Below, in pieces: positions 19,176 to 62,664 of a DNA stretch of 64,000 nucleotides (the stretch's first letter is position 1; every line of letters starts with the position of its first letter). Both the position numbers and the translations under genes were made by a program. Source of the DNA: Escherichia coli. GTDB taxonomy: Bacteria; Pseudomonadota; Gammaproteobacteria; Enterobacterales; Enterobacteriaceae. Under the pieces are notes generated by a model. That model ran no database searches, was not told the DNA's origin, and worked only from the letters and a program-made list of their open reading frames with translations. The stretch is taken from the NCBI RefSeq assembly GCF_030384885.1, contig NZ_CP128613.1. One strand, given 5' to 3'.

Positions 19176-19235
19176 TCTATCAGCAATACTTAAAATGTGT
19201 GCGAATGTTGGTTTAGATAATAATCTGCGTGAATG

Positions 19236-19249
19236 TTGATGTGGCTCAA
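19236..19249. promoter_or_regulatory. Candidate FNR site upstream of feoA
   Basis: TTGAT-gtgg-CTCAA matches 9 of 10 positions of TTGAT-N4-ATCAA. Confidence 0.5.
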
Positions 19250-19380
19250 GGTTATATCGCAGCGAAAATATAATTCGAATGGCGAATTATCAGGGCGGGT
19301 TAATGTTTAATTAAGGTTTCATTTGTTAATTAAGTGATAAATATTGACGAAATATAGTGTGAGTTTCGTTGTGGAATAAA

Positions 19381-19410
19381 AATGCCGGAGATATTCTCCG
19401 GCATTTTTAT
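19381..19410. terminator. Bidirectional intrinsic terminator downstream of tex
   Basis: AAAAAT-GCCGGAGA-tattc-TCCGGC-ATTTTT: a hairpin flanked by A-run and T-run. Confidence 0.7.
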
Positions 19411-19429
19411 GTCAGGCATGGCGTTTATT

Positions 19430-19465
19430 GCCAGATGCGGCGTGAACGCCTGATCTGGCCTACGA
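19430..19465. repeat. REP (repetitive extragenic palindrome) element
   Basis: GCCAGATGCGGCGTGAACGCCTGATCTGGCCTAC resembles the REP consensus GCCGGATGCGGCGTGAACGCCTTATCCGGCCTAC. Confidence 0.7.
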
Positions 19466-19502
19466 TCTTGTGCAAATTCGAACCGTAGGCCAATCAGGAG
19501 GT

Positions 19503-21824
19503 TTAACGTTTTTTGCCCATTGCCGCCGCCAGCGCATCCATCATCGCGCTGTTACCGGCAGGCTGCGCTTCACGACCGCGTGGTTTGGCTGCCGGGCGGT
19601 TGTTTTGCGGGCGTTCATTACCGCCCCCGCGACGGGCGTTGGTTTCGCCAGGCTGCTCGTCCAGACGCATAGTCAGGGCGATACGTTTACGCTGAAGATC
19701 CACTTCCAGCACTTTCACCTTCACAATGTCGCCCGCTTTCACCACGGTATGCGGATCTTCCACAAACTTGTTCGACAATGAAGAGATGTGAACCAGGCCG
19801 TCCTGATGTACGCCAATATCGACAAACGCGCCAAAGTTGGTGACGTTGGTCACCGCACCTTCGAGGATCATACCCGGTTGCAGGTCGTTCATTGTCTCGA
19901 CGCCATCGGCAAACTGGGCGGTTTTAAATTCCGGACGCGGATCGCGACCCGGTTTTTCCAGCTCTTTGATGATGTCGGTTACCGTCGGCACACCGAATTT
20001 CTCATCAGTAAAGTCAGACGCTTTCAGGTTACGCAGTTCGCTGCTGTTACCCATCAGATCTTTCAGTGCCTGCTGTGTTGCTGCCAGAATGCGTTCCACC
20101 ACCGGATAGGCTTCCGGGTGAACAGTAGAGGCGTCCAGCGGGTTGTCACCGTGGTTAATGCGCAAGAAGCCTGCGCACTGCTCGAAGGCTTTTGGCCCCA
20201 GGCGGCTGACTTTTAACAGTTGCTGGCGGTTCTGGAACTGGCCGTTCTCATCGCGCCAGGCCACAATGTTTTGCGCCATCATGCGCGTCAGGCCCGCCAC
20301 GCGGGTTAACAGCGGAACGGAAGCGGTGTTGAGATCGACGCCAACGGCGTTTACGCAGTCTTCTACTACTGCATCCAGTTTGCGGGCCAGCTGCGTCTGG
20401 CTGACGTCATGCTGATACTGACCTACGCCGATAGATTTCGGATCGATTTTCACCAGCTCCGCCAGCGGATCCTGCAAACGACGGGCGATAGACACCGCGC
20501 CACGCAGCGAAACATCGAGATCCGGGAACTCCTGCGCTGCCAGCTCGGAAGCCGAGTAAACCGACGCGCCTGCTTCGCTGACGATCACTTTCTGTGCGGT
20601 CACTTTCGGAAACTGCTTCTGAACGTCGAGATAGAAACGCTCAGTTTCGCGGGAAGCCGTACCGTTACCGATTGCCACCAGTTCAACGTTATGTTTTTCA
20701 CACAAGGCAGCAACGGTCATCGCTGCTTTTGCGGCTTGTCCGGTGTGCGGATAAATGGTGTCGGTCGCCACCAGTTTACCCGTCGCATCGACTACCGCCA
20801 CTTTTACCCCGGTACGCAGACCCGGATCGAGGCCCATCGTCGCACGCAGTCCGGCTGGGGCCGCCATCAGCAGATCGTGCAGGTTACGGGCAAAGACGTT
20901 GATTGCTTCATCTTCTGCACGTTCGCGCACTGTACCCATCAGTTCGGTTTCCAGGTGCATCAGCACCTTGATGCGCCAGGTCCAGCTCACCACGCCTTTG
21001 CGCCAGCTATCCGCCGGGGCATTGTTCAGGCGCAGACCGAGGTGATCCATGATGATTTGCTCGCAATAGCTCTCTTTTGGCGGTTCGTCGAACTGCGGAT
21101 CGGCATTTAGCGAAAGCTGGAGTACGCCTTCGTTACGCCCACGGAACATCGCCAGCGCGCGGTGAGAAGGCACCGTTGACAGCGGTTCGTGATGATCGAA
21201 ATAGTCGCGGAATTTCGCCCCTTCCTCTTCTTTACCGTTCACCACCGTAGAAACCAAATGCGCGTTCTTCCACAGATAATCACGCACTTTCGCCAGCAGC
21301 GCGGCATCTTCGGCAAACCGTTCCATCAGGATATAGCGCGCGCCGTCCAGCGCGGCTTTGGTATCTGCTACGCCTTTATCGGCATCAACATATTGTGCAG
21401 CGGCGACTTCTGGCGTGTGCGACGGATCGTTCCACAGTAGGTCGGCCAGTGGCTCAAGTCCTGCTTCAATAGCAATTTGCCCGCGGGTGCGGCGTTTAGG
21501 TTTGTAGGGCAGGTAGAGGTCTTCGAGTTCGGTTTTGCTTAAGGTGGCGTTGATAGCATTCGCCAGCTCGTCGGTCAGTTTGCCTTGCTCGGAAATGGAC
21601 TTGAGGATTGCCTGACGTCTCTCTTCCAGCTCGCGCAAATAGCTCAGACGCGTTTCCAGATTACGCAGTTGCGTGTCATCCAGACCGCCGGTGATTTCCT
21701 TACGATAACGTGCGATAAACGGCACGGTATTCCCTTCGTCAAGCAGGCGAACGGCAGCGTCAACCTGTTCCGGGCGCGCCTGAATTTCACCCGCAATAAT
21801 GCGGCAGAACGAATCATTCATCAT
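19503..21824 (-). CDS. tex: Transcription accessory protein Tex (YhgF), S1 domain
   Basis: 773 aa; [43 protein letters not shown]... Confidence 0.95.
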
Positions 21825-46849: not shown

Positions 46850-47527
46850 ATGAAACAGTATTTGATTGCCCCCTCAATTCTGTCGGCTGATTTTGCCCGC
46901 CTGGGTGAAGATACCGCAAAAGCCCTGGCAGCTGGCGCTGATGTCGTGCATTTTGACGTCATGGATAACCACTATGTTCCCAATCTGACGATTGGGCCGA
47001 TGGTGCTGAAATCTCTGCGTAATTATGGCATTACTGCCCCTATTGATGTGCATCTGATGGTGAAACCGGTCGATCGCATTGTGCCAGATTTCGCTGCCGC
47101 TGGTGCCAGCATCATAACCTTTCATCCAGAAGCCTCCGAGCATGTTGACCGCACGCTGCAACTGATTAAAGAAAATGGCTGTAAAGCGGGGCTGGTATTT
47201 AACCCGGCGACACCGCTGAGCTATCTGGATTACGTGATGGATAAGCTGGATGTGATCCTGCTGATGTCCGTCAACCCTGGTTTCGGCGGTCAGTCTTTCA
47301 TTCCTCAAACACTGGATAAACTGCGCGAAGTACGTCGTCGTATCGACGAGTCTGGCTTCGACATTCGACTGGAAGTGGACGGCGGCGTGAAGGTGAACAA
47401 CATTGGCGAAATCGCTGCGGCAGGTGCCGATATGTTCGTCGCTGGTTCGGCCATTTTCGATCAGCCAGACTACAAAAAGGTCATTGATGAAATGCGCAGT
47501 GAACTGGCAAAGGTAAGTCATGAATAA
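46850..47527 (+). CDS. rpe: Ribulose-phosphate 3-epimerase
   Basis: 225 aa; [47 protein letters not shown]... Confidence 0.96.
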
Positions 47528-48278
47528 GTTTGAAGATATTCGCGGCGTCGCTTTTGATCTCGATGGTACGCTGGTGGACAGTGCTCCTGGTCTGGCTGCT
47601 GCGGTAGATATGGCGCTGTATGCGCTGGAGTTGCCCGTCGCAGGTGAAGAGCGTGTTATTACCTGGATTGGTAATGGCGCAGATGTTCTGATGGAGCGTG
47701 CATTGACTTGGGCGCGTCAGGAACGTGCGACTCTGCGTAAAACAATGGGTAAACCGCCCGTTGATGACGACATTCCGGCAGAAGAACAGGTACGTATTCT
47801 GCGTAAACTGTTCGATCGCTACTATGGCGAGGTTGCCGAAGAGGGGACGTTTTTGTTCCCGCACGTTGCCGATACGCTGGGCGCATTGCAGGCAAAAGGC
47901 CTGCCGCTAGGTCTGGTCACCAACAAACCGACGCCGTTCGTCGCGCCACTGCTCGAAGCCTTAGATATCGCCAAATATTTCAGCGTGGTGATCGGTGGCG
48001 ATGATGTGAAAAACAAAAAGCCGCACCCGGACCCACTGTTACTGGTGGCTGAGCGGATGGGCATTGCCCCACAACAGATGCTGTTTGTTGGCGACTCCCG
48101 CAATGATATTCAGGCAGCAAAAGCAGCCGGTTGCCCTTCAGTTGGCTTAACCTACGGATATAACTACGGCGAGGCTATCGATCTTAGCCAGCCTGATGTA
48201 ATTTATCAGTCTATCAATGACCTTCTGCCCGCATTAGGGCTTCCGCATAGCGAAAATCAGGAATCGAAAAATGACTAA
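47520..48278 (+). CDS. gph: Phosphoglycolate phosphatase
   Basis: 252 aa HAD family; [30 protein letters not shown]...; overlaps the rpe stop. Confidence 0.95.
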
Positions 48279-49275
48279 GCCCATCGTTTTTAGTGGCGCA
48301 CAGCCCTCAGGTGAATTGACCATTGGTAACTACATGGGTGCGCTGCGTCAGTGGGTAAACATGCAGGATGACTACCATTGCATTTACTGTATCGTTGACC
48401 AACACGCGATCACCGTGCGCCAGGATGCACAGAAGCTGCGTAAAGCGACGCTGGATACGCTGGCCTTGTATCTGGCTTGTGGTATCGATCCTGAGAAAAG
48501 CACCATTTTTGTTCAGTCCCACGTGCCGGAACATGCGCAGTTAGGCTGGGCACTGAACTGCTATACCTACTTCGGCGAACTGAGCCGCATGACGCAGTTT
48601 AAAGATAAATCTGCGCGTTATGCCGAGAACATCAACGCGGGTCTGTTTGATTATCCGGTGCTGATGGCGGCGGATATCCTACTGTATCAAACCAATCTGG
48701 TGCCGGTGGGTGAAGACCAGAAACAGCACCTGGAACTGAGCCGCGATATCGCTCAGCGTTTTAATGCGCTGTACGGCGACATTTTTAAAGTGCCGGAACC
48801 GTTTATTCCAAAATCTGGCGCGCGCGTAATGTCGCTGCTGGAGCCGACCAAGAAGATGTCCAAGTCTGACGATAACCGCAATAACGTTATCGGCCTGCTG
48901 GAAGATCCGAAATCGGTAGTGAAGAAAATCAAACGCGCGGTCACTGACTCCGACGAGCCGCCGGTAGTTCGCTACGATGTGCAGAATAAAGCGGGCGTTT
49001 CCAACCTGCTGGATATTCTTTCTGCGGTAACTGGCCAGAGTATCCCGGAACTGGAAAAACAGTTCGAAGGCAAGATGTATGGTCATCTGAAAGGCGAAGT
49101 GGCTGATGCCGTTTCCGGTATGCTGACTGAATTGCAGGAACGCTATCACCGTTTCCGCAATGACGAAGCCTTCCTGCAACAGGTGATGAAAGATGGCGCA
49201 GAAAAAGCCAGCGCACACGCTTCCCGTACGCTAAAAGCGGTGTACGAAGCGATTGGATTTGTGGCGAAGCCGTAA
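48271..49275 (+). CDS. trpS: Tryptophan--tRNA ligase
   Basis: 334 aa; [25 protein letters not shown]... with class I KMSKS motif. Confidence 0.96.
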
Positions 49276-49280
49276 TATCA

Positions 49281-49345
49281 AAACGCTCGGACAGTCCCCT
49301 CGCCCCTTTGGGGAGAGGGTTAGGGTGAGGGGAGCAGGCAAGCGC
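49281..49345. repeat. GC-rich palindromic repeat / probable terminator after trpS
   Basis: TCCCCTCGCCCCTTTGGGGAGAGGGTTAGGGTGAGGGGAG contains nested inverted repeats (CCCCTC...GAGGGG); repeat family not assigned. Confidence 0.45.
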
Positions 49346-49544
49346 CAGTGCGAATTACCCTCTGCTCGCATTGTCGAATAAATCAATTCGTCATCACTCT
49401 GAAACCGGGGAAACCCGGTTTTTTATCCTCCTATTTGCAATAATCCGAAAAAATGTGAAGCGCCTCGCCGTTTCCACATCTCGCTGTTGCGCCTTATCTT
49501 CGAATTCCTGAATATATAAATATTCAATTTAATGAAAATTTACT

Positions 49545-50450
49545 ATGCGTCGAACGTTTATCAAAAAAGAAGGCGTCGTCATCACGACACTGGCCCGTTA
49601 TTTGTTGGGTGAAAAATGCGGTAATCGACTGAAAACCATAGATGAACTGGCAACTGAATGCCATTCATCCGTTGGCCTGACGCAGGCCGCGTTGAAAACG
49701 CTGGAATCAAGCGGTGCGATACGAATTAAACGCCGCGGGCGCAATGGCAGTTATCTGGTGGAAATGGATAACAAAGCACTGCTGAGTCATGTGGATATCA
49801 ACAACGTTGTGTGTGCCATGCCCTTGCCCTATACCCGCTTGTACGAAGGTTTAGCGAGTGGACTGAAAGCTCAGTTTGATGGCACTCCTTTTTATTATGC
49901 GCATATGCGCGGCGCGGATATTCGTGTGGAGTGTTTACTTAACGGCGTGTATGACATGGCGGTGGTTTCCCGACTGGCGGCAGAAAGTTATCTCACGCAA
50001 AAAGGCTTATGCCTCGCGCTGGAGTTGGGGCCGCATACCTACGTTGGTGAGCATCAGTTGATTTGCCGTAAAGGAGAGGCTGCAAAGGTGAAACGCGTGG
50101 GGTTGGATAACCGTTCGGCGGATCAGAAAATCATGACCGATGTCTTTTTTGGCGATAGTGATGTGGAACGAGCCGATCTCTCTTATCACGAGAGTTTACA
50201 ACGCATTGTTAAAGGCGATGTCGATGCGGTGATCTGGAATGTGGTAGCGGAGAGCGAACTGGCCATGCTGGGATTAGAAGCGATGCCACTGACGAACGAT
50301 CCGCGATTTTTACAGGCTACTGAAGCCGTGATACTAACGCGTGCCGATGATTACCCAATGCAACAACTACTACGTACGGTTGTAGATAAACATGCCCTGC
50401 TTGCTCATCAACAGCGAGTAGTCAGTGGGGAACAGGAACCCAGTTATTAA
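49545..50450 (+). CDS. yhfZ: Putative transcriptional regulator YhfZ
   Basis: 301 aa; MRRTFIKKEGVVITTLARYLLGEKCGNRLKTIDELATECHSSVGLTQAALKTLE... with N-terminal HTH-like segment; first gene of the yhfZ-yhfS cluster. Confidence 0.8.
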   Translation: MRRTFIKKEGVVITTLARYLLGEKCGNRLKTIDELATECHSSVGLTQAALKTLESSGAIRIKRRGRNGSYLVEMDNKALLSHVDINNVVCAMPLPYTRLYEGLASGLKAQFDGTPFYYAHMRGADIRVECLLNGVYDMAVVSRLAAESYLTQKGLCLALELGPHTYVGEHQLICRKGEAAKVKRVGLDNRSADQKIMTDVFFGDSDVERADLSYHESLQRIVKGDVDAVIWNVVAESELAMLGLEAMPLTNDPRFLQATEAVILTRADDYPMQQLLRTVVDKHALLAHQQRVVSGEQEPSY

Positions 50451-50466
50451 ACGAAAGGCATCTGAA

Positions 50467-50829
50467 ATGGAAACCAGACTCAACCTGCTTTGTGAGGCAG
50501 GCGTTATTGATAAGGACATCTGCAAAGGCATGATGCAGGTCGTCAACGTACTGGAAACAGAGTGTCATCTACCGGTACGCAGCGAGCAAGGAATGATGGC
50601 GATGACACATATGGCGAGCGCACTGATGCGCAGTCGCCGTGGTGAAGAAATAGAGCCGTTGGATGACGAATTGCTGGCAGAGCTGGCGCAATCCAGCCAC
50701 TGGCCAGCCATTTTACAATTGCATCAGGTGTTGTTGAAGGAATTCGCACTGGAAGTTAACCCGTGTGAAGAAGGCTATTTGCTGGCCAATCTTTATGGAT
50801 TATGGATGGCCGCTAACGAAGAGGTCTGA
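50467..50829 (+). CDS. yhfY: Uncharacterised protein YhfY
   Basis: METRLNLLCEAGVIDKDICKGMMQVVNV... (120 aa); the track ORF starts 14 codons upstream. Confidence 0.75.
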   Translation: METRLNLLCEAGVIDKDICKGMMQVVNVLETECHLPVRSEQGMMAMTHMASALMRSRRGEEIEPLDDELLAELAQSSHWPAILQLHQVLLKEFALEVNPCEEGYLLANLYGLWMAANEEV

Positions 50830-50912
50830 ATCTCCCGGCAAATCCACGTCGCGCATCTTAAATATTCAAAAAAATGAATATTTAATTCAAGGAACAGAAA
50901 CGAGGCAACAAG

Positions 50913-52076
50913 ATGTTTGTAGAAGCATTGAAACGCCAGAACCCGGCACTGATTTCCGTCGCACTCAGTTTGTGGCAACAGGGCAAAATCGCCCCGGACA
51001 GTTGGGTAATCGACGTCGATCAGGTACTGGAAAACGGTAAGCGGCTGATTGAGACGGCACGGCTTTACGGTATTGAACTGTATCTGATGACCAAACAGTT
51101 CGGTCGTAATCCGTGGCTGGCAGAAAAACTGCTGGCGCTGGGTTACAGCGGCATTGTGGCGGTGGATTACAAAGAGGCACGAATCATGCGCCGCGCAGGT
51201 TTATCGGTGGCGCATCAGGGGCATCTGGTACAAATCCCTTGTCATCAGGTTGCTGACGCCGTTGAACAGGGCACCGACGTCATCACCGTGTTTACCCTCG
51301 ATAAAGCGCGGGAAGTTTCTGCCGCAGCGGTGACGGCCGGGCGGGTCCAGCCTGTGCTGCTCAAAGTTTATAGCGACGATGATTTTCTTTATCCGGGGCA
51401 GGAGAGCGGTTTTGCACAGCATTCGCTGCATGAGGTGGTTGCTGAAATCCAGAAACTACCGGGGTTACATTTAGCCGGATTAACCCATTTCCCTTGCCTG
51501 CTATGGGATGAGGCTGCCGGGAAAGTTTTGCCAACACCGAACCTCCAGACGCTGGTCAATGCTCGTAACCAACTTCTGAAGTCTGGAGTTGTACTTGAGC
51601 AATTAAACGCGCCTTCAGCGACCAGCTGCACTTCGCTGCCATTACTGGCGGAATACGGTGTGACTCATGCCGAACCCGGCCATGCACTGACGGGGACGAT
51701 TCCGGCAAACCAGCAGGGCGACCAACCTGAACGTATCGCCATGCTTTGGTTAAGTGAAATTTCCCATCACTTCCGTGGCGACAGTTATTGCTATGGCGGT
51801 GGCTATTACCGTCGTGGGCATGCGCATAACGCACTGGTATTTACGCCAGAAAATCAAAGCATTACTGAAACATATCTCAAAGCCGTAGATGACAGCAGTA
51901 TCGACTACACCCTGCCGCTGGCAGGCGAGCATTCGGTAAGCAGTGCTGTGGTGCTCTGCTTTCGCACGCAGATTTTTGTCAGCCGTAGCGATGTGGTGCT
52001 GGTATCGGGTATTCAGCGCGGCGCGGCAGAAATTGTGGGGCGTTATGACAGCCTCGGTAACCCTCTGGAGGCGTAA
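50913..52076 (+). CDS. yhfX: Putative PLP-dependent enzyme YhfX (alanine-racemase-fold-like)
   Basis: 387 aa; [36 protein letters not shown]... Confidence 0.8.
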
Positions 52077-53302
52077 TGGCGCGATTTGTGGTGTTAGTGA
52101 TTGATAGCTTTGGCGTAGGCGCAATGAAAGATGTCATGTTGGTGCGCCCACAGGATGCCGGGGCGAATACCTGTGGTCACATCCTGAGCCAGTTGCCGCA
52201 TTTGCAGCTACCAACGCTGGAGAAAATGGGGCTAATCAACGCATTAGGTTATGCGCCAGGCGATATGCAGCCGTCAGACTCCGCAACCTGGGGCGTGGCA
52301 GAGTTGCAACATGAAGGTGGCGACACCTTTATGGGGCATCAGGAAATTTTAGGCACGCGCCCGTTACCGCCGCTGCGGATGCCCTTTCGCGATGCGATTG
52401 ACCGTGTTGAACAGGCATTAGTCACCGCTGGCTGGTGGGTTGAGCGCCGTGGCGATGATCTGCAATTTCTGTGGGTCAATCAGGCGGTTGCGATTGGCGA
52501 TAATCTCGAGGCGGATTTAGGCCAAGTCTATAACATTACCGCCAATCTCTCTGTGATCTCTTTTGACGACGCAATCAAAATTGGTCGTATCGTGCGTGAC
52601 CAGGTACAGGTCGGTCGGGTCATTACATTTGGCGGCCTGTTAACCGACAGTCAGCGTATTCTCGATGCCGCAGAAAGCAAAGAAGGGCGCTTTATTGGCA
52701 TCAACGCGCCGCGTTCTGGCGCTTATGACAACGGTTTCCAGGTCGTGCATATGGGCTATGGCGTCGATGAAAAAGTGCAGGTGCCACAAAAACTGTATGA
52801 AGCAGGCGTGCCAACCGTGCTGGTGGGTAAGGTGGCAGATATCGTCAGCAATCCTTATGGCGTGAGCTGGCAAAACCTGGTGGATAGCCAGCGGATTATG
52901 GATATCACCCTCGACGAATTTAACACGCATCCGACGGCGTTTATTTGCACCAACATTCAGGAAACTGACCTCGCTGGTTACGCAGAAGACGTCGCACGCT
53001 ATGCCGAACGTTTGCAGGTGGTTGACCGTAACCTTGCCCGGCTTGTTGAGGCGATGCAGCCAGATGATTGCCTGGTCGTGATGGCGGATCACGGTAACGA
53101 TCCGACCATTGGTCACAGCCACCATACCCGTGAAGTAGTGCCAGTGCTGGTTTATCAGCAAGGGCTGGTCCACACGCAACTCGGTGTGCGCACCACGCTT
53201 TCTGATGTGGGGGCTACCGTGTGTGAATTTTTCCGTGCGCCACCGCCACAAAATGGTCGCTCTTTTCTTTCCTCCCTCCGGTTTGCAGGAGACACCCTAT
53301 GA
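52076..53302 (+). CDS. yhfW: Putative phosphopentomutase-like metalloenzyme YhfW
   Basis: 408 aa; [35 protein letters not shown]..., resembling phosphopentomutase/alkaline-phosphatase superfamily N-termini. Confidence 0.8.
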
Positions 53303-54177
53303 GTTTTGATCCGACGGGCTTCACCCTCGCCCATGAGCATCTGCATATTGATCTCTCCGGCTTTAAAAACAACGTGGACTGCCGCCTTGATCAGTATGCG
53401 TTCATTTGCCAGGAGATGAACGACCTGATGGCACTGGGTGTGCGTAATGTGATTGAGATGACCAACCGTTACATGGGGCGCAATGCACAATTTATGCTCG
53501 ATGTAATGCACGAGACGGGGATCAACGTGGTGGCCTGCACCGGTTATTACCAGGACGCGTTTTTCCCGCAACATGTGGCGACCCGCAGCGTGCAGGAACT
53601 GGCGCAGGAGATGGTCGATGAAATTGAACAGGGTATCGATGGCACGGAGCTGAAAGCCGGGATCATCGCGGAGATCGGCTCCAGCGAAGGAAAGATTACG
53701 CCGCTGGAAGAGAAGGTGTTTATTGCCGCCGCGTTGGCGCATAACCAGACCGGATGCCCCATCTCCACGCATACGTCGTTCAGCACTATGGGGCTGGAGC
53801 AATTGGCTCTGTTGCAAGCCCACGGAGTTGATCTTTCGCGCGTCACCGTCGGGCACTGCGATCTGAAAGACAACCTCGACAACATTTTGAAGATGATCGA
53901 TCTCGGCGCGTATGTGCAGTTCGACACCATCGGCAAGAACAGTTACTACCCGGACGAAAAGCGCATTGCGATGCTCCACGCGCTACGTGACCGTGGTTTG
54001 CTGAACCGCGTCATGCTGTCGATGGATATTACGCGCCGCTCCCATTTAAAAGCCAACGGTGGTTATGGCTATGACTATTTATTGACCACCTTTATTCCGC
54101 AATTGCGCCAGTCAGGATTCAGTCAGGCCGATGTGGATGTGATGTTACGTGAAAATCCCTCTCAATTTTTCCAATAA
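53299..54177 (+). CDS. php: Phosphotriesterase homology protein (amidohydrolase superfamily)
   Basis: 292 aa; [32 protein letters not shown]...; HxH metal-binding motif. Confidence 0.88.
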
Positions 54178-54187
54178 GGACAGACTC

Positions 54188-54541
54188 ATGAAAAAGATTG
54201 GTGTTGCAGGCTTACAGCGTGAGCAGATTAAAAAAACCATTGAAGCGACGGCTCCTGGCTGTTTTGAAGTTTTCATTCACAACGACATGGAAGCGGCGAT
54301 GAAGGTGAAATCCGGGCAACTGGATTACTACATCGGCGCGTGTAATACCGGTGCGGGCGCGGCATTGTCGATTGCCATCGCGGTGATTGGCTATAACAAA
54401 AGTTGCACCATTGCCAAGCCGGGCATTAAAGCGAAAGACGAGCATATCGCCAAAATGATCGCCGAAGGGAAAGTGGCGTTTGGGCTTTCCGTTGAGCATG
54501 TCGAACACGCGATTCCGATGCTGATTAACCATCTGAAATAA
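54188..54541 (+). CDS. yhfU: Uncharacterised protein YhfU
   Basis: MKKIGVAGLQREQIKKTIEATAPG... (117 aa); the track ORF starts 13 codons upstream. Confidence 0.75.
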   Translation: MKKIGVAGLQREQIKKTIEATAPGCFEVFIHNDMEAAMKVKSGQLDYYIGACNTGAGAALSIAIAVIGYNKSCTIAKPGIKAKDEHIAKMIAEGKVAFGLSVEHVEHAIPMLINHLK

Positions 54542-54552
54542 AAGGCACGACT

Positions 54553-55857
54553 ATGGATCTGTATATTCAGATTATCGTGGTGGCGTGCCTGACGGGTATG
54601 ACATCGCTTCTGGCGCATCGCTCGGCAGCCGTTTTTCATGACGGTATCCGCCCGATCCTGCCGCAACTGATTGAAGGCTATATGAACCGTCGTGAGGCGG
54701 GGAGTATCGCTTTTGGTCTGAGCATTGGTTTTGTGGCCTCGGTGGGGATCTCTTTTACCCTGAAAACCGGGTTGCTCAACGCATGGTTACTCTTTCTTCC
54801 TACCGATATCCTCGGTGTCCTGGCGATAAACAGCCTGATGGCGTTTGGCCTTGGTGCACTCTGGGGCGTACTGATCCTCACCTGTCTGCTGCCGGTAAAC
54901 CAGCTGCTGACCGCGCTACCGGTGGATGTATTAGGTAGTCTGGGGGAATTAAGCTCGCCAGTGGTTTCAGCTTTTGCACTGTTCCCGTTGGTGGCGATTT
55001 TCTACCAGTTTGGCTGGAAGCAAAGTCTGATCGCCGCCGTGGTAGTGTTGATGACCCGTGTGGTGGTAGTGCGCTATTTCCCGCATCTCAATCCGGAATC
55101 CATCGAAATCTTTATTGGCATGGTGATGCTGCTGGGGATCGCGATAACTCACGACCTGCGTCATCGTGATGAAAATGACATCGATGCCAGCGGTATGTCG
55201 GTGTTTGAAGAACGTACGTCGAGGATTATCAAAAATTTACCCTATATCGCCATCGTAGGGGCGCTGATTGCCGCCGTTGCCAGCATGAAGATTTTTGCTG
55301 GTAGTGAAGTGTCGATCTTCACCCTGGAGAAAGCATATTCCGCAGGTGTAACGCCGGAACAATCACAAACGCTGATCAACCAGGCGGCGCTGGCGGAATT
55401 TATGCGCGGGCTGGGTTTTGTGCCGTTGATTGCCACCACCGCGTTAGCAACAGGTGTGTATGCAGTTGCGGGCTTTACCTTTGTTTATGCGGTGGGCTAT
55501 CTCTCGCCGAATCCGATGGTTGCGGCGGTATTAGGCGCAGTGGTTATTTCGGCAGAAGTCCTGTTACTTCGTTCGATCGGCAAATGGCTGGGACGCTACC
55601 CATCGGTACGTAATGCGTCGGATAACATCCGTAACGCCATGAATATGCTGATGGAAGTGGCTCTGCTGGTCGGTTCGATTTTCGCAGCAATTAAGATGGC
55701 GGGCTATACCGGATTCTCTATCGCGGTTGCCATTTACTTCCTCAACGAATCTCTGGGCCGTCCGGTACAGAAAATGGCGGCACCGGTCGTGGCAGTAATG
55801 ATCACTGGCATCCTGCTGAATGTTCTTTACTGGCTTGGTCTGTTCGTTCCGGCTTAA
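54553..55857 (+). CDS. yhfT: Inner membrane protein YhfT (putative transporter)
   Basis: 434 aa polytopic membrane protein; MDLYIQIIVVACLTGMTSLLAHRSAAVFHDG... Confidence 0.82.
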   Translation: MDLYIQIIVVACLTGMTSLLAHRSAAVFHDGIRPILPQLIEGYMNRREAGSIAFGLSIGFVASVGISFTLKTGLLNAWLLFLPTDILGVLAINSLMAFGLGALWGVLILTCLLPVNQLLTALPVDVLGSLGELSSPVVSAFALFPLVAIFYQFGWKQSLIAAVVVLMTRVVVVRYFPHLNPESIEIFIGMVMLLGIAITHDLRHRDENDIDASGMSVFEERTSRIIKNLPYIAIVGALIAAVASMKIFAGSEVSIFTLEKAYSAGVTPEQSQTLINQAALAEFMRGLGFVPLIATTALATGVYAVAGFTFVYAVGYLSPNPMVAAVLGAVVISAEVLLLRSIGKWLGRYPSVRNASDNIRNAMNMLMEVALLVGSIFAAIKMAGYTGFSIAVAIYFLNESLGRPVQKMAAPVVAVMITGILLNVLYWLGLFVPA

Positions 55858-55868
55858 AGAAGGCACCT

Positions 55869-56954
55869 ATGAAGACGTTTCCTTTGCAAAGCCTGACGCT
55901 TATTGAAGCGCAGCAAAAGCAGTTTGCGTTGGTGGATACGATTTGCCGCCATTTTCCCGGCGCGGAGTTTCTTACCCGCGGGGATTTAGGCTTAACGCCG
56001 GGGCTGAATCAACCGCGCATTACTCAGCGTGTGGAGCAGGTGCTGGCTGATGCGTTTCATGCGCCAGCGGCGGCGCTGGTGCAGGGCGCGGGTACTGGAG
56101 CAATTCGCGTCGGGCTGGCAGCTTTGCTCAAATCGGGGCAGCGTCTTCTGGTGCATGACGCGCCTGTTTACCCGACGACTCAGGTCATTATTGAGCAGAT
56201 GGGGCTGACGCTTATTACAGCTGATTTCAACGACCTGTCGGCGCTTAAAGAGGCCATTGAAGAGCAACAACCTGATGCCGCGCTGGTGCAGCATACGCGC
56301 CAGCAGCCGCAGGACAGCTATGTACTGGCAGATGTGCTGGCAACGCTGCGCGCAGCAGGTGTTCCAGCCTTAACCGATGACAACTATGCGGTGATGAAGG
56401 TGGCGCGCATTGGCTGTGAATGCGGCGCGAATGTTTCGACATTCTCCTGTTTCAAGCTGTTTGGACCAGAGGGTGTTGGCGCGGTGGTAGGCGATGCCGA
56501 TGTTATCAACCGTATTCGCGCTACGCTTTACTCTGGCGGCAGCCAGATTCAGGGCTCACAGGCGCTGGAAGTCTTGCGTGGTTTGGTGTTTGCGCCAGTG
56601 ATGCACGCGGTGCAGGCGGGGGTATCTGAACGGTTGCTGGCTTTACTTAACGGTGGCGCAGTGGCGGAAGTGAAAAGCGCGGTGATTGCCAATGCGCAGT
56701 CGAAGGTGTTGATTGTGGAGTTTCATCAACCGATTGCCGCCAGAGTGCTTAAAGAGGCGCAAAAGCGCGGCGCGTTGCCTTACCCGGTTGGTGCAGAGTC
56801 GAAATATGAGATCCCGCCGCTTTTTTATCGCCTTTCCGGAACGTTTCGCCAGGCGAATCCGCAATTAGAACATTGTGCGATTCGTATTAACCCGAATCGC
56901 AGCGGTGATGAGACGGTATTGCGGATTTTGCGCGAGAGTATTGCCAGCGTTTAA
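55869..56954 (+). CDS. yhfS: Putative PLP-dependent enzyme YhfS
   Basis: 361 aa; MKTFPLQSLTLIEAQQKQFALVDTICRHFPGAEFLTRGDLGLTPG... Confidence 0.8.
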   Translation: MKTFPLQSLTLIEAQQKQFALVDTICRHFPGAEFLTRGDLGLTPGLNQPRITQRVEQVLADAFHAPAAALVQGAGTGAIRVGLAALLKSGQRLLVHDAPVYPTTQVIIEQMGLTLITADFNDLSALKEAIEEQQPDAALVQHTRQQPQDSYVLADVLATLRAAGVPALTDDNYAVMKVARIGCECGANVSTFSCFKLFGPEGVGAVVGDADVINRIRATLYSGGSQIQGSQALEVLRGLVFAPVMHAVQAGVSERLLALLNGGAVAEVKSAVIANAQSKVLIVEFHQPIAARVLKEAQKRGALPYPVGAESKYEIPPLFYRLSGTFRQANPQLEHCAIRINPNRSGDETVLRILRESIASV

Positions 56955-56992
56955 TTCTGGGAACGATGTTTTCGCAGAGTATGGAGAAAAAT

Positions 56993-57018
56993 ACGCCCTC
57001 GGAAAATTCAGAGGGCGT
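56993..57018 (-). terminator. Hairpin terminator between convergent yhfS and yhfL
   Basis: ACGCCCTC-ggaaaattca-GAGGGCGT, an 8 bp stem; T-run on the minus strand downstream of the yhfL stop. Confidence 0.55.
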
Positions 57019-57058
57019 TAGCTCATTAAATCGGTGTTAGCCGATTTCTGTCAGAGAC

Positions 57059-57226
57059 TTACTGTGCAGTAGGACCGCAACCGCCAATGATTTTAGAAAT
57101 AGAAATTGCTGGGTGCAGCAGGTAGTCGTAAGAGCAGTTCTTATCACGGTTTTCAATATGACCAGTACATGCAGTTAACGTAGCCAGTACCGCACCAACC
57201 AGTGCAACTTTAATAAATTTGTTCAT
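57059..57226 (-). CDS. yhfL: Small lipoprotein YhfL (55 aa)
   Basis: Translated by hand from the reverse strand: MNKFIKVALVGAVLATLTACTGHIENRDKNCSYDYLLHPAISISKIIGGCGPTAQ, with lipobox LTAC. Absent from the ORF track because it is under 60 aa. Confidence 0.85.
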   Translation of the reverse strand: MNKFIKVALVGAVLATLTACTGHIENRDKNCSYDYLLHPAISISKIIGGCGPTAQ

Positions 57227-57472
57227 TTACATTCCCTATGTATTATATATTAATTAATATTCATTTATTATATGAATATAAGCAGACTGCTCATTAAGAA
57301 CGATACAGGAATATTTAATTGGCGTCAGTGAGTGAATGACTTAATTTTGTAAGTCGCTGTAACGGTGAAAATAACCCATTAGCAAATGATATTTACTAAG
57401 AGGTTATGATTTATTTACTGAATATATAAAAAGAGTGATAAAGAGGGCCAGAATTATCTGGCCCGGGTAAAA

Positions 57473-58846
57473 TTAATGGTTAGAGAACCAGTTCAATTTA
57501 TCGCGCAGGCTAACGACCCGACCAATAATAATTAATGAGGGGCTGTTCATTTGCTGCGCCAGCTCGCCCAGTTGCGAGAGCGTACCGTCAATCACGCGTT
57601 GCGTTACCGCCGTACCGTTTTCGACAATCGCCACCGGCATTTCGCCAGGCATTCCGTGTTCAATCAGTTTTTGCTGAATGGTCGCGGCCTGATTCAGCCC
57701 CATATAGAACACTAGCGTCTGTTTTTCGGCTGCCAGGTTTTCCCAGTCCAGCTCGCCACCGGTTTTTAAGTGTCCGGTGATTAAGCGCACGCTCTGAGCA
57801 TAATCGCGATGCGTGAGGGGAATGCCCGAATAGGCAGAGCAACCAGACGCTGCGGTAATACCCGGAACTACTGAGAACGGAATACCCGCATTGCACAGTG
57901 TTTCAAGCTCTTCGCCACCACGGCCAAAAATAAACGGATCGCCGCCTTTCAGCCGCACCACGCGTTTACCTTTTTGCGCTTCCCGCAGCAGGATCTGGTT
58001 AATCTCTTCCTGCGGTACGCAGTGATACCCCGCGCGTTTACCGACGAAGACACGATCCGCATCGCGCCGTACCAGATTCATAATATCGTCTGAAACCAGA
58101 CGGTCGTAGACCACCACATCTGCCTGCTGAATTTGTTGCAGACCTTTTAGTGTCAGCAGACCGGCATCGCCCGGACCTGCGCCAACCAGCACCACTTCAC
58201 CGCGATGATCGAGCGGTTCATTGATTAACTGTTCGGTCGTTTCGGTAATGGCTTTCTGATCGTTGTTCGCCAGCGACTGCGCCAGGCGATCATTAACGAA
58301 CAGTTTTTCCCAGAAACGGCGACGTTCACCCATCGTGGCGAACTGTCGTTTGACCCGACCGCGTAACTGCCCCGCATATTTTGCTACCTGGCCGAGATGC
58401 AGCGGCAGCAGTGATTCAAGTTTTTCGCGCAACAGTCGCGCCAGAACCGGAGAGGTGCCGCCAGAGGAGACCGCTACCATGAGAGGGGAGCGGTCAATAA
58501 TCGACGGCATAATAAAGCTGGCGGCTTTCGGCGCATCGACCACGTTACAGAAGATACGACGAGATTCGGCGGCTTCGCTGACACGCTGGTTAAGCGCGTC
58601 ATCATCCGTCGCCGCAATTGCCAGCCAGCAGGTGTCGAGAAGGCTTTCATCAAATGGCCCTTCGACGAGGGTTAACATGCCTGCATCTGCCCATGCGGTG
58701 AACTGTGGAATAAACGCTAATGCATTCACCGTTAAGCGAGCACCTGCGTCTAACAGCAACCTTGCTTTGCGTTCCGCGACATCACCACCGCCGACAATCA
58801 AACAGTCGCGGTCGCGTAATTGGCAAAATATAGGCAAATGATCCAC
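57473..58846 (-). CDS. cysG: Siroheme synthase (multifunctional)
   Basis: 457 aa; [43 protein letters not shown]... Confidence 0.96.
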
Positions 58847-58864
58847 GTAAAAACCCCTTAATAA

Positions 58865-59671
58865 TTAACCGGCAGCCGTTTCAGTTTGATTAAATTTGTC
58901 CGCAACCGGACGATTAGCTTTCGGCGTAGCATACCAATAACCCAATCCCATGAATACGGCACCCGATAAAGTATTACCCAGCGTCACCCACAGCAGGTTA
59001 TGACCAATACCCGCCAGCGTGTAGGCTTCGCTGTGGTTGCCGAACCATGAGAGCGCGAACAGCGTCATGTTAGCGATGGAGTGCTCGTAACCGGACGCAA
59101 TAAACGCCAGCAGACACCACCAGATTGCGATAAATTTCGCCGCGCCTTCAGTACGCAGTGCCATCCAGATTGCCAGACAAACCAGCCAGTTACACAATGC
59201 GCCTTTGAAGAACAGTACCATTGCCGGTGCGGTGGTTTTAGCCAGCGCGACGGAGTGAACAATACTGGTATCTACTGGCAAAAGGCTACCACCGCCCCAG
59301 CTATAAAGCATGGCAACAAAGACGGAACCGACCAGGTTACCCAGCCAGGTTTGCGGCAGGATTGCCCACATTTGCCCGTGGCTAATGGTGCCCGCTTTCA
59401 CCCCAAAGGTGAGGAACATGGTGTGTCCGGTGAACAGTTCAGAACCGGCGATAATGACCAGCGTTAAGGCGATACCGAAGGTCGCGCCCATCACCAGAGG
59501 ACGTACGGACGGATCGAGCAAATTACCGAGCGTGAAAATCAGGATGATCCCCAGCCCCACATACGCGCCCGCCATCGCGGAGCTTACCCAGAAGCCGAGC
59601 GGGTTATTTGCCGACAGGCGTGCAATGCGCGCAGCGTTAGCCGCACACTTATTAATAGTGTCTGTAAACAT
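58865..59671 (-). CDS. nirC: Nitrite transporter NirC (FNT family)
   Basis: 268 aa membrane protein; MFTDTINKCAANAARIARLSANNPLGFWVSSAMAGAYVGLGI... Confidence 0.95.
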   Translation of the reverse strand: MFTDTINKCAANAARIARLSANNPLGFWVSSAMAGAYVGLGIILIFTLGNLLDPSVRPLVMGATFGIALTLVIIAGSELFTGHTMFLTFGVKAGTISHGQMWAILPQTWLGNLVGSVFVAMLYSWGGGSLLPVDTSIVHSVALAKTTAPAMVLFFKGALCNWLVCLAIWMALRTEGAAKFIAIWWCLLAFIASGYEHSIANMTLFALSWFGNHSEAYTLAGIGHNLLWVTLGNTLSGAVFMGLGYWYATPKANRPVADKFNQTETAAG

Positions 59672-59797
59672 TTGATTATCCTTTAAAAAATAAAAACAAA
59701 AAATAAAACAAAAAGTTTAAAAAATGTCCTGCAATATACTTAAGGTCATTACAGGACAATGCAAAAAGGGGAGGCATTGCGCCTCCCGTTAAAACAA

Positions 59798-60124
59798 TTA
59801 ACCGCGTAGCTGTACCACGCCGTCTTTCACTCGTGCCTCGTAATGCTTGACGGAAAACTGTTCATCTTCCATGCATAAACCGTCGCTTAAGCGAAAACGC
59901 TGTTTTTTCAGCGGACTGGCGACCCACAGCTCGCCCTGGTGTTCCGCAATCAGCCCGCGTGACAGCACGCTGGATTCGAAGAACGGATCGATGTTGCTGA
60001 TCGCAAACACCTGGTCGCTGTGATACGGGCGGAAAATCGCTACCTGCTCGTCACCTAACAGCGCGCAGACGCCGGTTTCAGGCAGGATGTCATCAATTTT
60101 GCAGATGTCTTTCCACTGGCTCAT
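59798..60124 (-). CDS. nirD: Nitrite reductase (NADH) small subunit
   Basis: 108 aa; MSQWKDICKIDDILPETGVCALLGDEQVAIFRPY..., Rieske-like. Confidence 0.95.
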   Translation of the reverse strand: MSQWKDICKIDDILPETGVCALLGDEQVAIFRPYHSDQVFAISNIDPFFESSVLSRGLIAEHQGELWVASPLKKQRFRLSDGLCMEDEQFSVKHYEARVKDGVVQLRG

Positions 60125-62664
60125 GCGTTGTCCTCCACCAGAGTTACCGGGATACGTTCATACGGCGTTGCCGGACGGTGCTGTTCGCGCTCTGGCACCA
60201 TCTGCACGTTCGGGTCACGCTTATCGCTGTTGATGAAGTGTTTGAAGCGAGTCTGCGCAGACGGCGTATTGACCGTTTCAGTCCACTCACACACTACCGC
60301 TTCACGCAGGCGCGCCATCTCTTCTTCCAGATGTGCGTTCAGCCCCAGCTTGTCGTCAATGATCACCGCTTTCAGGTAATCGATGCCGCCTTCGAGGTTT
60401 TCTAACCACGGTGCGGTACGCGTCAGTTTGTCGGCAGTACGGATGTAGAACATCATGAAGCGGTCAAGATATTTGATCAGCGTTTCGCGATCGATATCCG
60501 CTGCCAGCAGATCCGCATGACGCGGTTTCATGCCGCCGTTACCGCACACATACAGGTTCCAGCCTTTTTCAGTGGCGATAATACCCACATCTTTACCCTG
60601 AGCTTCTGAACATTCACGGGTACAGCCGGAGACACCGAACTTCATTTTGTGCGGCGTACGGATGCCTTTGTAGCGGTTTTCCAGTTCCACGCCGAGGCCG
60701 ACGCTGTCGCCAACGCCGTAGCGGCACCAGGTGCTACCCACGCAGGTTTTCGCCATACGCAGTGCTTTCGCATACGCATGACCGGTTTCGAAACCTGCTT
60801 CAATCAGCTGACGCCAGATCTCCGGCAGATCGTCTTTCTGTGCGCCAAACATCGCCAGACGCTGGGAGCCGGTGATTTTGGTGTAGAGATTAAATTCACG
60901 CGCGATACGACCCACTGCCATCAGCCCTTCTGGGGTGATTTCACCACCCGGAGAACGCGGGATCACCGAGTAGGTACCGTCTTTCTGGATGTTAGCGAGG
61001 AAGTTGTCGTTAGAATCCTGCAGCGGAGTATGTTCCGGCTTCAGAATGTATTCGTTCCAGCAGGAGGCCAGCAGCGAACCGACGGTCGGTTTACAAACCT
61101 CACAACCGTAGCCTTTACCGTGTTTCGCCAGCAGTTCTTCGAAGGTTTTAATGCCTTCAACGCGGATCAAATGGAACAGTTCCTGACGCGAATAAGCAAA
61201 GTGTTCGCACAGGTTATTGTTAACTTCGATACCCTGTTTTGCCAGTTCCGCGTTCAGTACCTGAGTGACCAGCGGGATACAGCCACCGCAGCCAGTACCC
61301 GCTTTGGTTTCGGCTTTCAGCGCCGCAACGGTGTGGCAGCCTTTGTTGATGGCAGCAATCAGATCGCCTTTGGTGACGTCGAAGCAGGAGCAGATTTGCG
61401 CGCTGTCCGGCAGTTTATCAACACCGATAGACGGCTTGCCGCTACCTGAGTGCGCCGGCAGGATCAGGGAATCCGGGTTTTCCGGCAGTTCGATTGCGTT
61501 CAGCACCAGTTGCAGCAGGTTACCGTAGTCGCTGGTATCACCCACCAGTACTGCACCGAGCAGGGTTTTGTTGTCTTCGCTGACAATCAGGCGTTTGTAG
61601 ATCTCTTTACTTTCGTCGAGGTAAACGTAGCTACGTGCGCCAGGCGTGCGACCGTGAGCATCGCCAATACCGCCTACGTCTACGCCCAGCAATTTCAGCT
61701 TGGCGCTAAGGTCAGCACCTTCAAAGGCGTTTTCGCTACCGAGAATATGGTCAACGGCGACCTGCGCCATTTTGTAGCCAGGTGCTACCAGACCAAATAC
61801 ACGGTTGTTCCAGCTTGCGCATTCGCCGATGGCGTAGATATCTGGATCGGAAGTCTGGCAGGAATCATTAATGACGATACCCCCACGCGGAGCAACGTCC
61901 AGACCACACTGAGTTGCCAGCTTATCGCGCGGACGGATACCGGTAGAGAAGACGATAAAGTCGACTTCCAGTTCGCTGCCGTCGGCAAAACGCATGGTTT
62001 TACGCGCTTCAACACCTTCCTGCACAATCTCAAGGGTGTTTTTGCTGGTGTGAACGCGCACGCCCATACTTTCGATTTTGCGACGCAGCTGCTCGCCACC
62101 CATCTGATCAAGCTGTTCCGCCATCAGCATAGGGGCAAATTCGATAACGTGGGTTTCAATGCCTAAGTTTTTCAGCGCGCCAGCGGCTTCCAGACCTAAC
62201 AGGCCGCCGCCAACAACGGCACCGCGCTTACTGCGACGGGCGCAGGATTCAATGGCGTTGAGGTCTTCAATGGTGCGATAGACAAAGCAGTCCTGAGTAT
62301 CAGAACCTTTGATTGGCGGGATCCACGGATAGGAACCGGTCGCCATGATCAGCTTGTCATAAAAAACGGTACGTCCGGCGCTGGAGTGAATCACCTTCTC
62401 CTGACGGTTGATGGTGATAGCGCGTTCGCCGACCAGAACTTTAATACCGTGTTTCTCGTAGAAGCCTTCGCGCACCAGCGACAGCTCTTCGGCGGTGTGG
62501 TGAGAGAAGTAAGACGAGAGGTGTACGCGGTCATAAGCGATGCGCGGTTCTTCACAGAAAACGGTAATATCAAAGTTGGCCGCATCAGATTTATCAAGAA
62601 GATCTTCGATAAAGCGATGGCCGACCATACCGTTACCGATAATTGCGAGTCTGACTTTGCTCAT
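60121..62664 (-). CDS. nirB: Nitrite reductase (NADH) large subunit
   Basis: 847 aa; MSKVRLAIIGNGMVGHRFIEDLLDKSD...; stop overlaps the nirD start. Confidence 0.97.
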   Translation of the reverse strand: MSKVRLAIIGNGMVGHRFIEDLLDKSDAANFDITVFCEEPRIAYDRVHLSSYFSHHTAEELSLVREGFYEKHGIKVLVGERAITINRQEKVIHSSAGRTVFYDKLIMATGSYPWIPPIKGSDTQDCFVYRTIEDLNAIESCARRSKRGAVVGGGLLGLEAAGALKNLGIETHVIEFAPMLMAEQLDQMGGEQLRRKIESMGVRVHTSKNTLEIVQEGVEARKTMRFADGSELEVDFIVFSTGIRPRDKLATQCGLDVAPRGGIVINDSCQTSDPDIYAIGECASWNNRVFGLVAPGYKMAQVAVDHILGSENAFEGADLSAKLKLLGVDVGGIGDAHGRTPGARSYVYLDESKEIYKRLIVSEDNKTLLGAVLVGDTSDYGNLLQLVLNAIELPENPDSLILPAHSGSGKPSIGVDKLPDSAQICSCFDVTKGDLIAAINKGCHTVAALKAETKAGTGCGGCIPLVTQVLNAELAKQGIEVNNNLCEHFAYSRQELFHLIRVEGIKTFEELLAKHGKGYGCEVCKPTVGSLLASCWNEYILKPEHTPLQDSNDNFLANIQKDGTYSVIPRSPGGEITPEGLMAVGRIAREFNLYTKITGSQRLAMFGAQKDDLPEIWRQLIEAGFETGHAYAKALRMAKTCVGSTWCRYGVGDSVGLGVELENRYKGIRTPHKMKFGVSGCTRECSEAQGKDVGIIATEKGWNLYVCGNGGMKPRHADLLAADIDRETLIKYLDRFMMFYIRTADKLTRTAPWLENLEGGIDYLKAVIIDDKLGLNAHLEEEMARLREAVVCEWTETVNTPSAQTRFKHFINSDKRDPNVQMVPEREQHRPATPYERIPVTLVEDNA

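Follow-up and report, generated by a model that had tools for sequence, protein, structure and literature searches.

The eight genes yhfZ, yhfY, yhfX, yhfW, php, yhfU, yhfT and yhfS of Escherichia coli were analyzed in a stretch of 64,000 nucleotides (contig NZ_CP128613.1, assembly GCF_030384885.1); the whole stretch is referred to as the window, and all positions are counted from its first nucleotide. The cluster lies between trpS and cysG and resembles yhfZ-yhfS of strain K-12 (b3383-b3376) in its eight genes, their order and the trpS-side flank. Gene frames were taken from a mechanical list of open reading frames (ORFs) and from the RefSeq annotation of NZ_CP027579.1 (E. coli 2013C-4282), which is 100% identical to the window. 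Both sources place the eight genes as in Table 1, intact, co-directional and tightly packed, as described in an initial annotation made from the sequence alone. When the junctions were read directly, yhfX and yhfW had 1 nt in common (TAATG) and yhfW and php had 4 nt in common (ATGA), in agreement with the abutting and overlapping ends described in that annotation. The overlap it also described between yhfZ and yhfY was not confirmed, since it needs yhfY to start at an unsupported upstream GTG (50425); with the annotated ATG at 50467, which is preceded by a Shine-Dalgarno-like AAAGG, a 16-nt gap remains after yhfZ. The gaps php/yhfU, yhfU/yhfT and yhfT/yhfS are 10-11 nt each, and the yhfY-yhfX spacer is 83 nt long.

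Table 1. Genes and sequence features of the yhf cluster, with positions in the window.
Feature	Position	Strand	Description
CRP-like half-site TGTGA-N6-TCGCC	49454..49469	+	91 nt upstream of yhfZ ATG
Palindrome O1, ATCTTCG-aattcc-TGAATAT	49496..49515	.	Putative YhfZ operator, degenerate in this haplotype
Palindrome O2, ATATTCA-atttaa-TGAAAAT	49520..49539	.	Putative YhfZ operator, ends 6 nt before yhfZ ATG
yhfZ	49545-50450	+	Transcription factor: HTH_41 and YhfZ_C ligand-binding domain
yhfY	50467-50829	+	Stand-alone PRD-like protein, invariant His48
Palindrome OX, AAATATTCA-aaaaaa-TGAATATTT	50860..50883	.	yhfY-yhfX spacer; putative YhfZ operator over yhfX promoter region
yhfX	50913-52076	+	Fold-type III (alanine-racemase-like) pyridoxal phosphate (PLP) enzyme
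yhfW	52076-53302	+	Phosphopentomutase-like alkaline-phosphatase-superfamily enzyme; codon 302 = Tyr
php	53299-54177	+	Phosphotriesterase-homology binuclear metallohydrolase
yhfU	54188-54541	+	DUF2620; predicted RpiB/LacAB-like fold; invariant Cys52-x-Thr/Ser54-Gly
yhfT	54553-55857	+	Polytopic membrane protein, PF10797, presumed transporter
yhfS	55869-56954	+	Fold-type I PLP enzyme; accessory cluster member
Hairpin GCCCTC-N10-GAGGGC	56995-57016		Between yhfS and yhfL; read from sequence; T-run after it, - strand

The yhf cluster is a long-annotated and well-known gene set without an assigned function, and therefore finding it is not in itself novel. All yhf products are labelled 'putative' or 'uncharacterized' in the K-12 RefSeq record, the structures of YhfX (PDB 4KBX), YhfS (4J8L) and the YhfZ C-terminal domain (2OZZ) are titled 'uncharacterized' or 'hypothetical', and Php is still named 'phosphotriesterase homology protein' in its PDB entries (1BF6, 4LEF). 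A paper of January 2026 still lists YhfW among uncharacterized genes, as a putative mutase (PMC12924614). Full-text literature searches by gene, protein, structure and domain-family identifiers found no substrate assignment for the yhf genes, and the matches were mostly same-named Bacillus subtilis genes or high-throughput lists. A match to 'b3379' proved to be a plasmid name, and mentions of 'riboswitch' or 'attenuator' concerned distant coordinates or bacterial interspersed mosaic element (BIME) repeats. Among the 120 best DUF2620 matches, every displayed source name was 'DUF2620', 'hypothetical' or similarly uninformative. By profile, all eight products scored far above the Pfam or NCBIfam cut-offs for their families, except YhfY, whose PRD match is weak. 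The six family assignments made in the initial annotation (regulator, two PLP enzymes, phosphopentomutase-like enzyme, phosphotriesterase homologue and membrane protein) were correct by these matches; it had offered no role for YhfY or YhfU.

To define the distribution of the cluster, one genome per species was scanned with an eight-sequence alignment as query, which gave 80 loci (numbered with the prefix L), and the eight E. coli proteins were mapped onto their ORFs. The YhfT family is small, with 305 clusters at 50% identity among 1.84 billion representatives. The genes yhfZ, yhfY, yhfX, yhfW, php, yhfU and yhfT make up a core common to Enterobacterales, Vibrionaceae, Fusobacteria (Sebaldella), Clostridia and Bacilli. 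yhfU accompanied yhfT in 80/80 loci, always immediately upstream; yhfX was present in 78, php in 77, yhfZ in 72, yhfW in 70 and yhfY in 69. The order of the genes is shuffled, being Z-Y-X-W-php-U-T-S in Enterobacteriaceae, Z-Y-php-U-T-X-W in Vibrionaceae and Z-(Y)-U-T-php-(S)-X-W in Firmicutes, yet the U-T and X-W pairs are never split, and yhfX and yhfW are adjacent in all 70 loci that have yhfW. Enterovibrio (L066, L073, L074) has only yhfU-yhfT-yhfX-yhfW, without the regulator, the PRD protein and php, and metagenomic loci whose YhfT is only 27-32% identical retain several of the same partner genes. The conservation described in the initial annotation thus extends over 80 genomes of several phyla.

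Compared with K-12, the ratio of nonsynonymous to synonymous divergence (dN/dS) was 0-0.13 for all eight genes at a dS of 0.13-0.43, indicating that the yhf genes are maintained by selection; together with the recurrence in 80 genomes, this argues that the arrangement is not due to chance. With an 8.5-kb query (positions 49000-57500, the cluster with about 0.55 kb on either side) and a match covering at least 80% counted as presence, 5,059 of 5,426 complete E. coli genomes (approximately 93%) keep the cluster. It is accordingly quite improbable that the E. coli cluster is a silent or decaying remnant without a current physiological role. The 367 genomes without a match over at least 80% of the query would fit such a remnant, as would a literature that gave high-throughput entries only and no growth or substrate phenotype, and the YhfW substitution H302Y and weakened O1 palindrome of this strain (see below); however, the low dN/dS, the intact ORFs, the retention in most genomes and the conservation across phyla all stand against it. 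Since most E. coli, as well as gut and marine bacteria of several phyla, keep these genes, they presumably serve the use of a common, unrecognized nutrient.

Cross-genus alignment of upstream regions revealed that all Enterobacterales yhfY-yhfX spacers carry the nearly invariant TTAAATATTCAAAAAAATGAATATTTAA (OX), with diverging flanks, and that two palindromes of this type, O1 and O2, lie in tandem in the yhfZ leader. The exact motif TTCA-N6-TGAA is found at 49523-49536 in O2 and at 50865-50878 in OX, and two of its three matches in the window are at yhf sites. O1 is perfect in K-12 (ATCTTCA-aattcc-TGAAGAT) and has two substitutions here, a variant shared by the closest haplotype, H2 (strain 2017-02-2CC). 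The Vibrionaceae counterpart of the palindrome reads TATCTTCAAAATAATGAAGATA, and Firmicutes carry a related ATGTACA-N6-TGTACAT, with GTACA..TGTAC where the Proteobacteria have TTCA..TGAA. The general form T[TA]CA-N6-TG[TA]A occurred 4.16 times per kb upstream of cluster genes, compared to 0.12 per kb in the rest of the 1.56 Mb of locus DNA, an enrichment of about 34-fold, and was present in 64 of 84 loci. Because the palindrome co-occurs with yhfZ and changes with the phylum, we take it to be the likely YhfZ operator, and the way it covers the likely core promoters points to repression. In addition, 25 Enterobacteriaceae loci carry TGTGA-N6-TCNC ahead of yhfZ (at -91 in 21, -88 in three and -63 in one), with a spacer that varies among them and against a background expectation of 0.003 per 140 nt, making a putative CRP site plausible; its right half-site is weak, and a sigma-70 scan found no + strand promoter near it upstream of yhfZ. 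An Rfam scan of positions 49200-57500 yielded no RNA family, the single match (E 0.66) being a chance one.

The presumed reader of these operators, YhfZ, matched NF041241 over its full length (369.3 bits; cut-off 260), and PF14502 and PF14503 also matched. YhfY gave weak profile matches to the PRD family PF00874 (15.3 bits; threshold 23) and to TIGR03582 (26.2 bits; cut-off 69; E 7.9e-6), and its orthologues in L002, L004, L007 and L096 gave unmarked PF00874 matches. His48 of YhfY is conserved in 73/73 sequences and is a candidate for the phosphorylatable histidine of a PRD. Clusters of the EF_0829/AHA_3910 type, which comprise uncharacterized membrane proteins (DUF4310/4311/4312) with a PLP enzyme and a hydrolase, likewise encode a small stand-alone PRD protein (TIGR03582) related to YhfY; however, YhfT matches none of their membrane families and the enzymes differ. 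No characterization of those clusters was found in the literature. In the dga pathway of Salmonella, a phosphotransferase system (PTS) and a PLP lyase degrade an amino-sugar acid, D-glucosaminate. Genes of the PTS also occur beside yhf genes. In a Clostridiales genome (L078), yhfW is directly followed by an Enzyme I gene; the same place is taken in L002 and L005 by Enzyme IIC (EIIC) genes of the lactose/cellobiose family, and eight Vibrionaceae loci have EIIC genes of this family close to the cluster. A PRD protein with an invariant His48 and these Enzyme I and EIIC neighbors are a hint of coupling to the PTS.

Among the enzymes, YhfW matched PF01676 and PRK12383 (729 bits); we take PRK12383 to be the model of the YhfW orthologues, and none of the solved or named proteins found ties that model to an assayed activity. 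Like the phosphopentomutase DeoB (B. cereus, PDB 3M8W), YhfW has the DT nucleophile, ADHGNDP and HTRE motifs in an alkaline-phosphatase-superfamily core, and D10, T84, D298, D338, H339 and H350 are present here and family-wide. Codon 302 of this strain, in contrast, is TAC (52979-52981) and encodes Tyr, where His is found in 71/71 other family members, in K-12 and in the nearest haplotype. This position aligns with the His of the D-x-x-x-H motif of phosphopentomutase, which we take to be a metal ligand of the alkaline-phosphatase superfamily. The YhfW family therefore has the nucleophile together with the complete Asp/His ligand set, whereas the YhfW of this strain has the nucleophile but lacks one predicted ligand. 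Since His302 belongs to a predicted metal-ligand motif, the private substitution H302Y may leave YhfW inactive or impaired in this strain.

Php scored 484 bits against PF02126, and all six of its metal ligands (H12, H14, E125, H158, H186, D243) are invariant in 82/82 sequences; in structure 1BF6, Glu125 presumably replaces the carboxylated lysine of most members of the phosphotriesterase (PTE) family. The best named NCBIfam relative was the phospho-furanose lactonase NF045706 (E 1e-29; 103.6 bits, cut-off 630). Like the phosphorylated sugar-lactonases (NF045706; Lmo2620, PDB 3PNZ), to which it is related in sequence (E 1e-29 to 1e-34), Php has a PTE fold and a binuclear center with four His and one Asp. 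Those lactonases act on pentono-1,4-lactone 5-phosphates and sit in sugar-uptake clusters. The sole functional finding located for the cluster in the literature is that overproduction of Php rescues a pdxB deletion, by a route inferred to form 2-oxo-3-hydroxy-4-phosphobutanoate (PMC3010111). As this is a phosphorylated sugar-acid-like compound, we counted the link to Php in favor of a phosphorylated sugar-type substrate.

YhfU is predicted to have a fold like that of the RpiB/LacAB sugar-phosphate isomerases (PF02502), RpiB being the ribose-5-phosphate/allose-6-phosphate isomerase B, and to keep their Cys-x-Thr loop. In a profile alignment of weak significance (E 0.026), YhfU Cys52-Asn-Thr54-Gly fell on E. 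coli RpiB Cys66-Gly-Thr68-Gly, of which Cys66 and Thr68 are presumably the catalytic pair; C52 is found in 85/85 YhfU sequences, and Thr or Ser at position 54 likewise in 85/85. Unlike RpiB/LacAB, YhfU is about 30 residues shorter and is always encoded beside a membrane protein. Its last residue is 117, and the aligned part of RpiB reaches only residue 124 of 149, so that the C-terminal helix, in which we assume the phosphate-binding arginines of RpiB to lie, is missing. Without this part, and with a score below the Pfam threshold, YhfU resembles RpiB in build and is not a member of its family. Membership of the SFCGS/EF_0830 family was rejected, since the NCBIfam scan and a profile search gave only DUF2620 proteins among the matches listed.

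The homologues of phosphopentomutase, RpiB and the pentonolactone-5-phosphate lactonases act on five-carbon furanose phosphates, which points to a pentose phosphate, and the presence of two PLP enzymes implies an alpha-amino function. YhfX matched PF01168 (76.9 bits; threshold 24.1) and PF21279 (YhfX-like_C), with an invariant PLP lysine (K61), Y299 and R301, and YhfS matched PF00155 (40.8 bits; threshold 19.7) and PF22475 (YhfS-like_C), with an invariant PLP lysine (K196) and pyridine-nitrogen aspartate (D170). Sequence comparison of YhfX with other solved enzymes returned only its own entry, 4KBX. Judging from the sequences, the substrate most likely combines a phosphorylated furanose-type skeleton of five carbons, from a sugar or a sugar acid, with an alpha-amino (or amino-acid) function.

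A substrate without a sugar part would have to be an amino-acid-derived lactone, lactam or D-amino acid, such as a homoserine-lactone-like compound or a basic D-amino acid derivative, with Php as a ring-opening hydrolase, YhfX as a racemase, YhfS as either a gamma-lyase or an aminotransferase, and a phosphatase or phosphotransferase role for YhfW. The only named NCBIfam match of YhfX is indeed ornithine racemase (E 5.6e-7), the best matches of YhfS are methionine gamma-lyase and O-succinylhomoserine sulfhydrylase, the closest solved relatives of Php by sequence are lactonases deposited as aryldialkylphosphatases, and the invariant buried Asp, Glu and Arg residues of YhfT would suit a zwitterion. 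However, all of these enzyme matches are far below family cut-offs (for YhfX, 28.9 bits against the cut-off of 480 of the ornithine racemase Orr, NF040742; for YhfS, far below those of both models), the core RpiB-like protein and the phosphopentomutase-like enzyme would be left without a role, and the PRD protein and PTS neighbors would be unaccounted for. We therefore consider an amino-acid substrate rather improbable.

The family membership of two enzymes also bears on a role in phosphorus scavenging, in which Php and YhfW would cleave the P-O or C-P bonds of organophosphate or phosphonate esters and aminophosphonates would be handled by the PLP enzymes. In its favor, Php is a member of the phosphotriesterase family and YhfW one of the alkaline-phosphatase superfamily, and the cluster is common in marine Vibrionaceae. 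What is conserved upstream, however, is a palindrome of the YhfZ type together with a CRP-like site; no Pho-box-like element was recognized in the region by eye, no formal search having been made. Moreover, YhfW retains the mutase-type DT nucleophile motif, the RpiB-like protein has no role in such a scheme, and no phosphonate-pathway genes lie near the cluster. Phosphorus scavenging is thus a very improbable function, on a par with a decaying remnant.

We propose that the yhf cluster encodes an inducible pathway by which a phosphorylated amino compound of the pentose type is catabolized, a general scheme to which we give an even chance, any specific substrate being much less probable. Gene content, conservation, DNA motifs, retained catalytic residues and predicted folds are what the scheme builds on, and from these we infer the substrate class, the biochemical steps and their order. 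YhfZ would bind TTCA-N6-TGAA over the yhfZ and yhfX promoter regions and probably repress transcription until its C-terminal domain binds an inducer, the CRP-like site at -91 would add catabolite control, and YhfY would probably pass the phosphorylation state of the PTS to the YhfZ switch. YhfT would import the compound, and Php would open a lactone, ester or amide bond. YhfW would move or remove the phosphate by means of a phospho-threonine and a two-metal site, YhfU would isomerize the sugar phosphate with its RpiB-type Cys-x-Thr loop, and YhfX, with YhfS where present, would racemize, transaminate or eliminate the amino group. More tentatively, and with distinctly less confidence than in the general scheme, the cluster may represent a catabolic route undescribed in any organism, for example for an aminated pentonolactone phosphate or a ribosyl-amino-acid conjugate, with an entry formed by YhfT, the fold of which is absent from the PDB, and a miniature RpiB-like YhfU, and with a split PRD/YhfZ switch that reads the PTS.

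YhfT itself offers a further clue. The YhfT model gave no match to solved structures, and the protein showed no similarity to known PTS EIIC in sequence or fold; Asp, Glu and Arg residues buried in it are invariant. A distant homologue (24% identity; L095, 8001-9978) is encoded 13 nt upstream of a methylthioadenosine/S-adenosylhomocysteine (MTA/SAH) nucleosidase gene. The nucleosidase is bona fide (191.9 bits; cut-off 169), the same pair is found on a second contig, and four contigs carry that YhfT. This neighborhood hints that the family handles ribosyl compounds.

Several points weigh against the proposed pathway. The link to the nucleosidase (MtnN) comes from a YhfT homologue of only 24% identity, and YhfT might have a function other than import. 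The similarity of YhfU to RpiB is statistically weak (13.6 bits against PF02502; threshold 24.7), and YhfU lacks most catalytic and phosphate-binding residues of RpiB, with no conserved counterpart of them outside the Cys-x-Thr loop. YhfW scored below the cut-offs of the DeoB models (139.3 vs 341.2 bits for TIGR01696; 177.3 vs 256 bits for NF003766), and its central cap domain, which in DeoB holds the pentose phosphate, aligns with that of DeoB without confidence. Php is about equally close to quorum-quenching lactonases/esterases and to sugar-lactonases. Binding of YhfZ to the palindromes, and of CRP to the site at -91, is predicted, and in the literature no inducer and no growth or substrate phenotype was found for yhf genes beyond high-throughput screen entries. 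yhfS is found in only 38 of the 80 loci and is thus accessory, and several Yersinia species (L041, L043, L045-L048, L051, L052) keep the cluster without yhfW. Finally, the cluster encodes no kinase, nor does any locus examined, and no recognizable PTS permease is encoded in the cluster, which leaves the origin of the phosphate unexplained.

The missing kinase would be explained by the main rival of this scheme, in which an unorthodox group translocator of the PTS type is made up of YhfT and YhfU and the substrate arrives already phosphorylated. YhfU would then be no isomerase but a IIB-like carrier phosphorylated on Cys52, and YhfT a IIC-like channel. Compared with PTS EIIB, YhfU did not show the IIB fold, in which a phosphorylatable Cys follows strand 1, and YhfT, as noted, does not resemble EIIC; we regard this translocator as unlikely, though less so than an amino-acid substrate. 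Overall, the catabolic pathway proposed in the initial annotation is partly supported: its interpretation was reasonable, and a phosphorylated sugar-plus-amine substrate stays the most economical reading, but calling the pathway complete over-reaches for a cluster without a kinase or a recognizable PTS permease.

Although YhfX, YhfS, Php and a part of YhfZ have been solved by crystallography, the yhf genes remain among the unexplained y-genes of E. coli. Identifying the nutrient would close a gap in the metabolic map of this species and give the two orphan families YhfT and DUF2620 a function, and it might account for the bypass of pdxB by Php overproduction. The question becomes somewhat easier to test with the operator motif, the hypothesis of a pentose phosphate and the resemblance of the predicted YhfU fold to RpiB; the handles provided here are a predicted operator, a hypothesis on the substrate class and the caution that the YhfW of this strain may be inactive.

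Other neighbors of the cluster were also recorded. A NagB-family deaminase gene follows it in two Bacilli and a HAD phosphatase gene in L007 and L008, both of which we count in favor of the proposed pathway. Acid-phosphatase genes after yhfT in L039 and L044 were judged to be unrelated neighbors, and the position of YhfT beside an Orn/Lys/Arg decarboxylase in L006 was attributed to a conserved housekeeping neighborhood (gin, tmk) and not to an operon. In Vibrionaceae, a lactose/cellobiose-type PTS (IIB, IIC, IIA) with a DUF7916 protein is found beside the yhf genes (L064, about 17211-21293; L067, 20622-21293; L055, 4258-7200; L062, 16442-19343). A second yhfZ paralogue stands beside that PTS in L064, and another in the same position in L067, suggesting that YhfZ-family regulators may control PTS operons more generally.

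Relative to K-12, nucleotide identity of the cluster is 93.4% overall, 88% in yhfX and about 91% in yhfZ and yhfS. K-12 combines His302 in YhfW with a perfect O1, whereas this strain has Tyr302 and a degenerate O1. The segment from rpe to nirC (about 46850-60675 and beyond) is divergent from K-12, with a dS of 0.13-0.43, whereas dam, just upstream, has a dS of 0.011; a divergent haplotype beside such a gene suggests an old recombinational import. Only 22 of 5,434 matching E. coli records reach at least 95% identity over positions 49000-57500. Between yhfS and yhfL, K-12 has 5,243 nt with frlABCDR, the fructoselysine operon, in place of which 28 unrelated nt (56961-56988) are found here. As yhfS is directly followed by cysG in 24 other loci of enterobacteria, the state without frl looks ancestral, with an insertion of frl in most E. 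coli. The hairpin between yhfS and yhfL is, from its sequence, probably the yhfL terminator, and the same hairpin may also end the yhf transcript, acting in both directions.

At the other end of the cluster, the trpS-yhfZ spacer contains, within 49281-49390, a G+C-rich palindromic element at 49296-49334, CCCCTCGCCCCTTTGGGGAGAGGG..., which does not align with the 132 nt that K-12 has there, where a BIME repeat was reported. The 22-nt core of this element (49311-49332) occurs once in the window, and the element is followed by the trpS terminator hairpin at 49401-49426.

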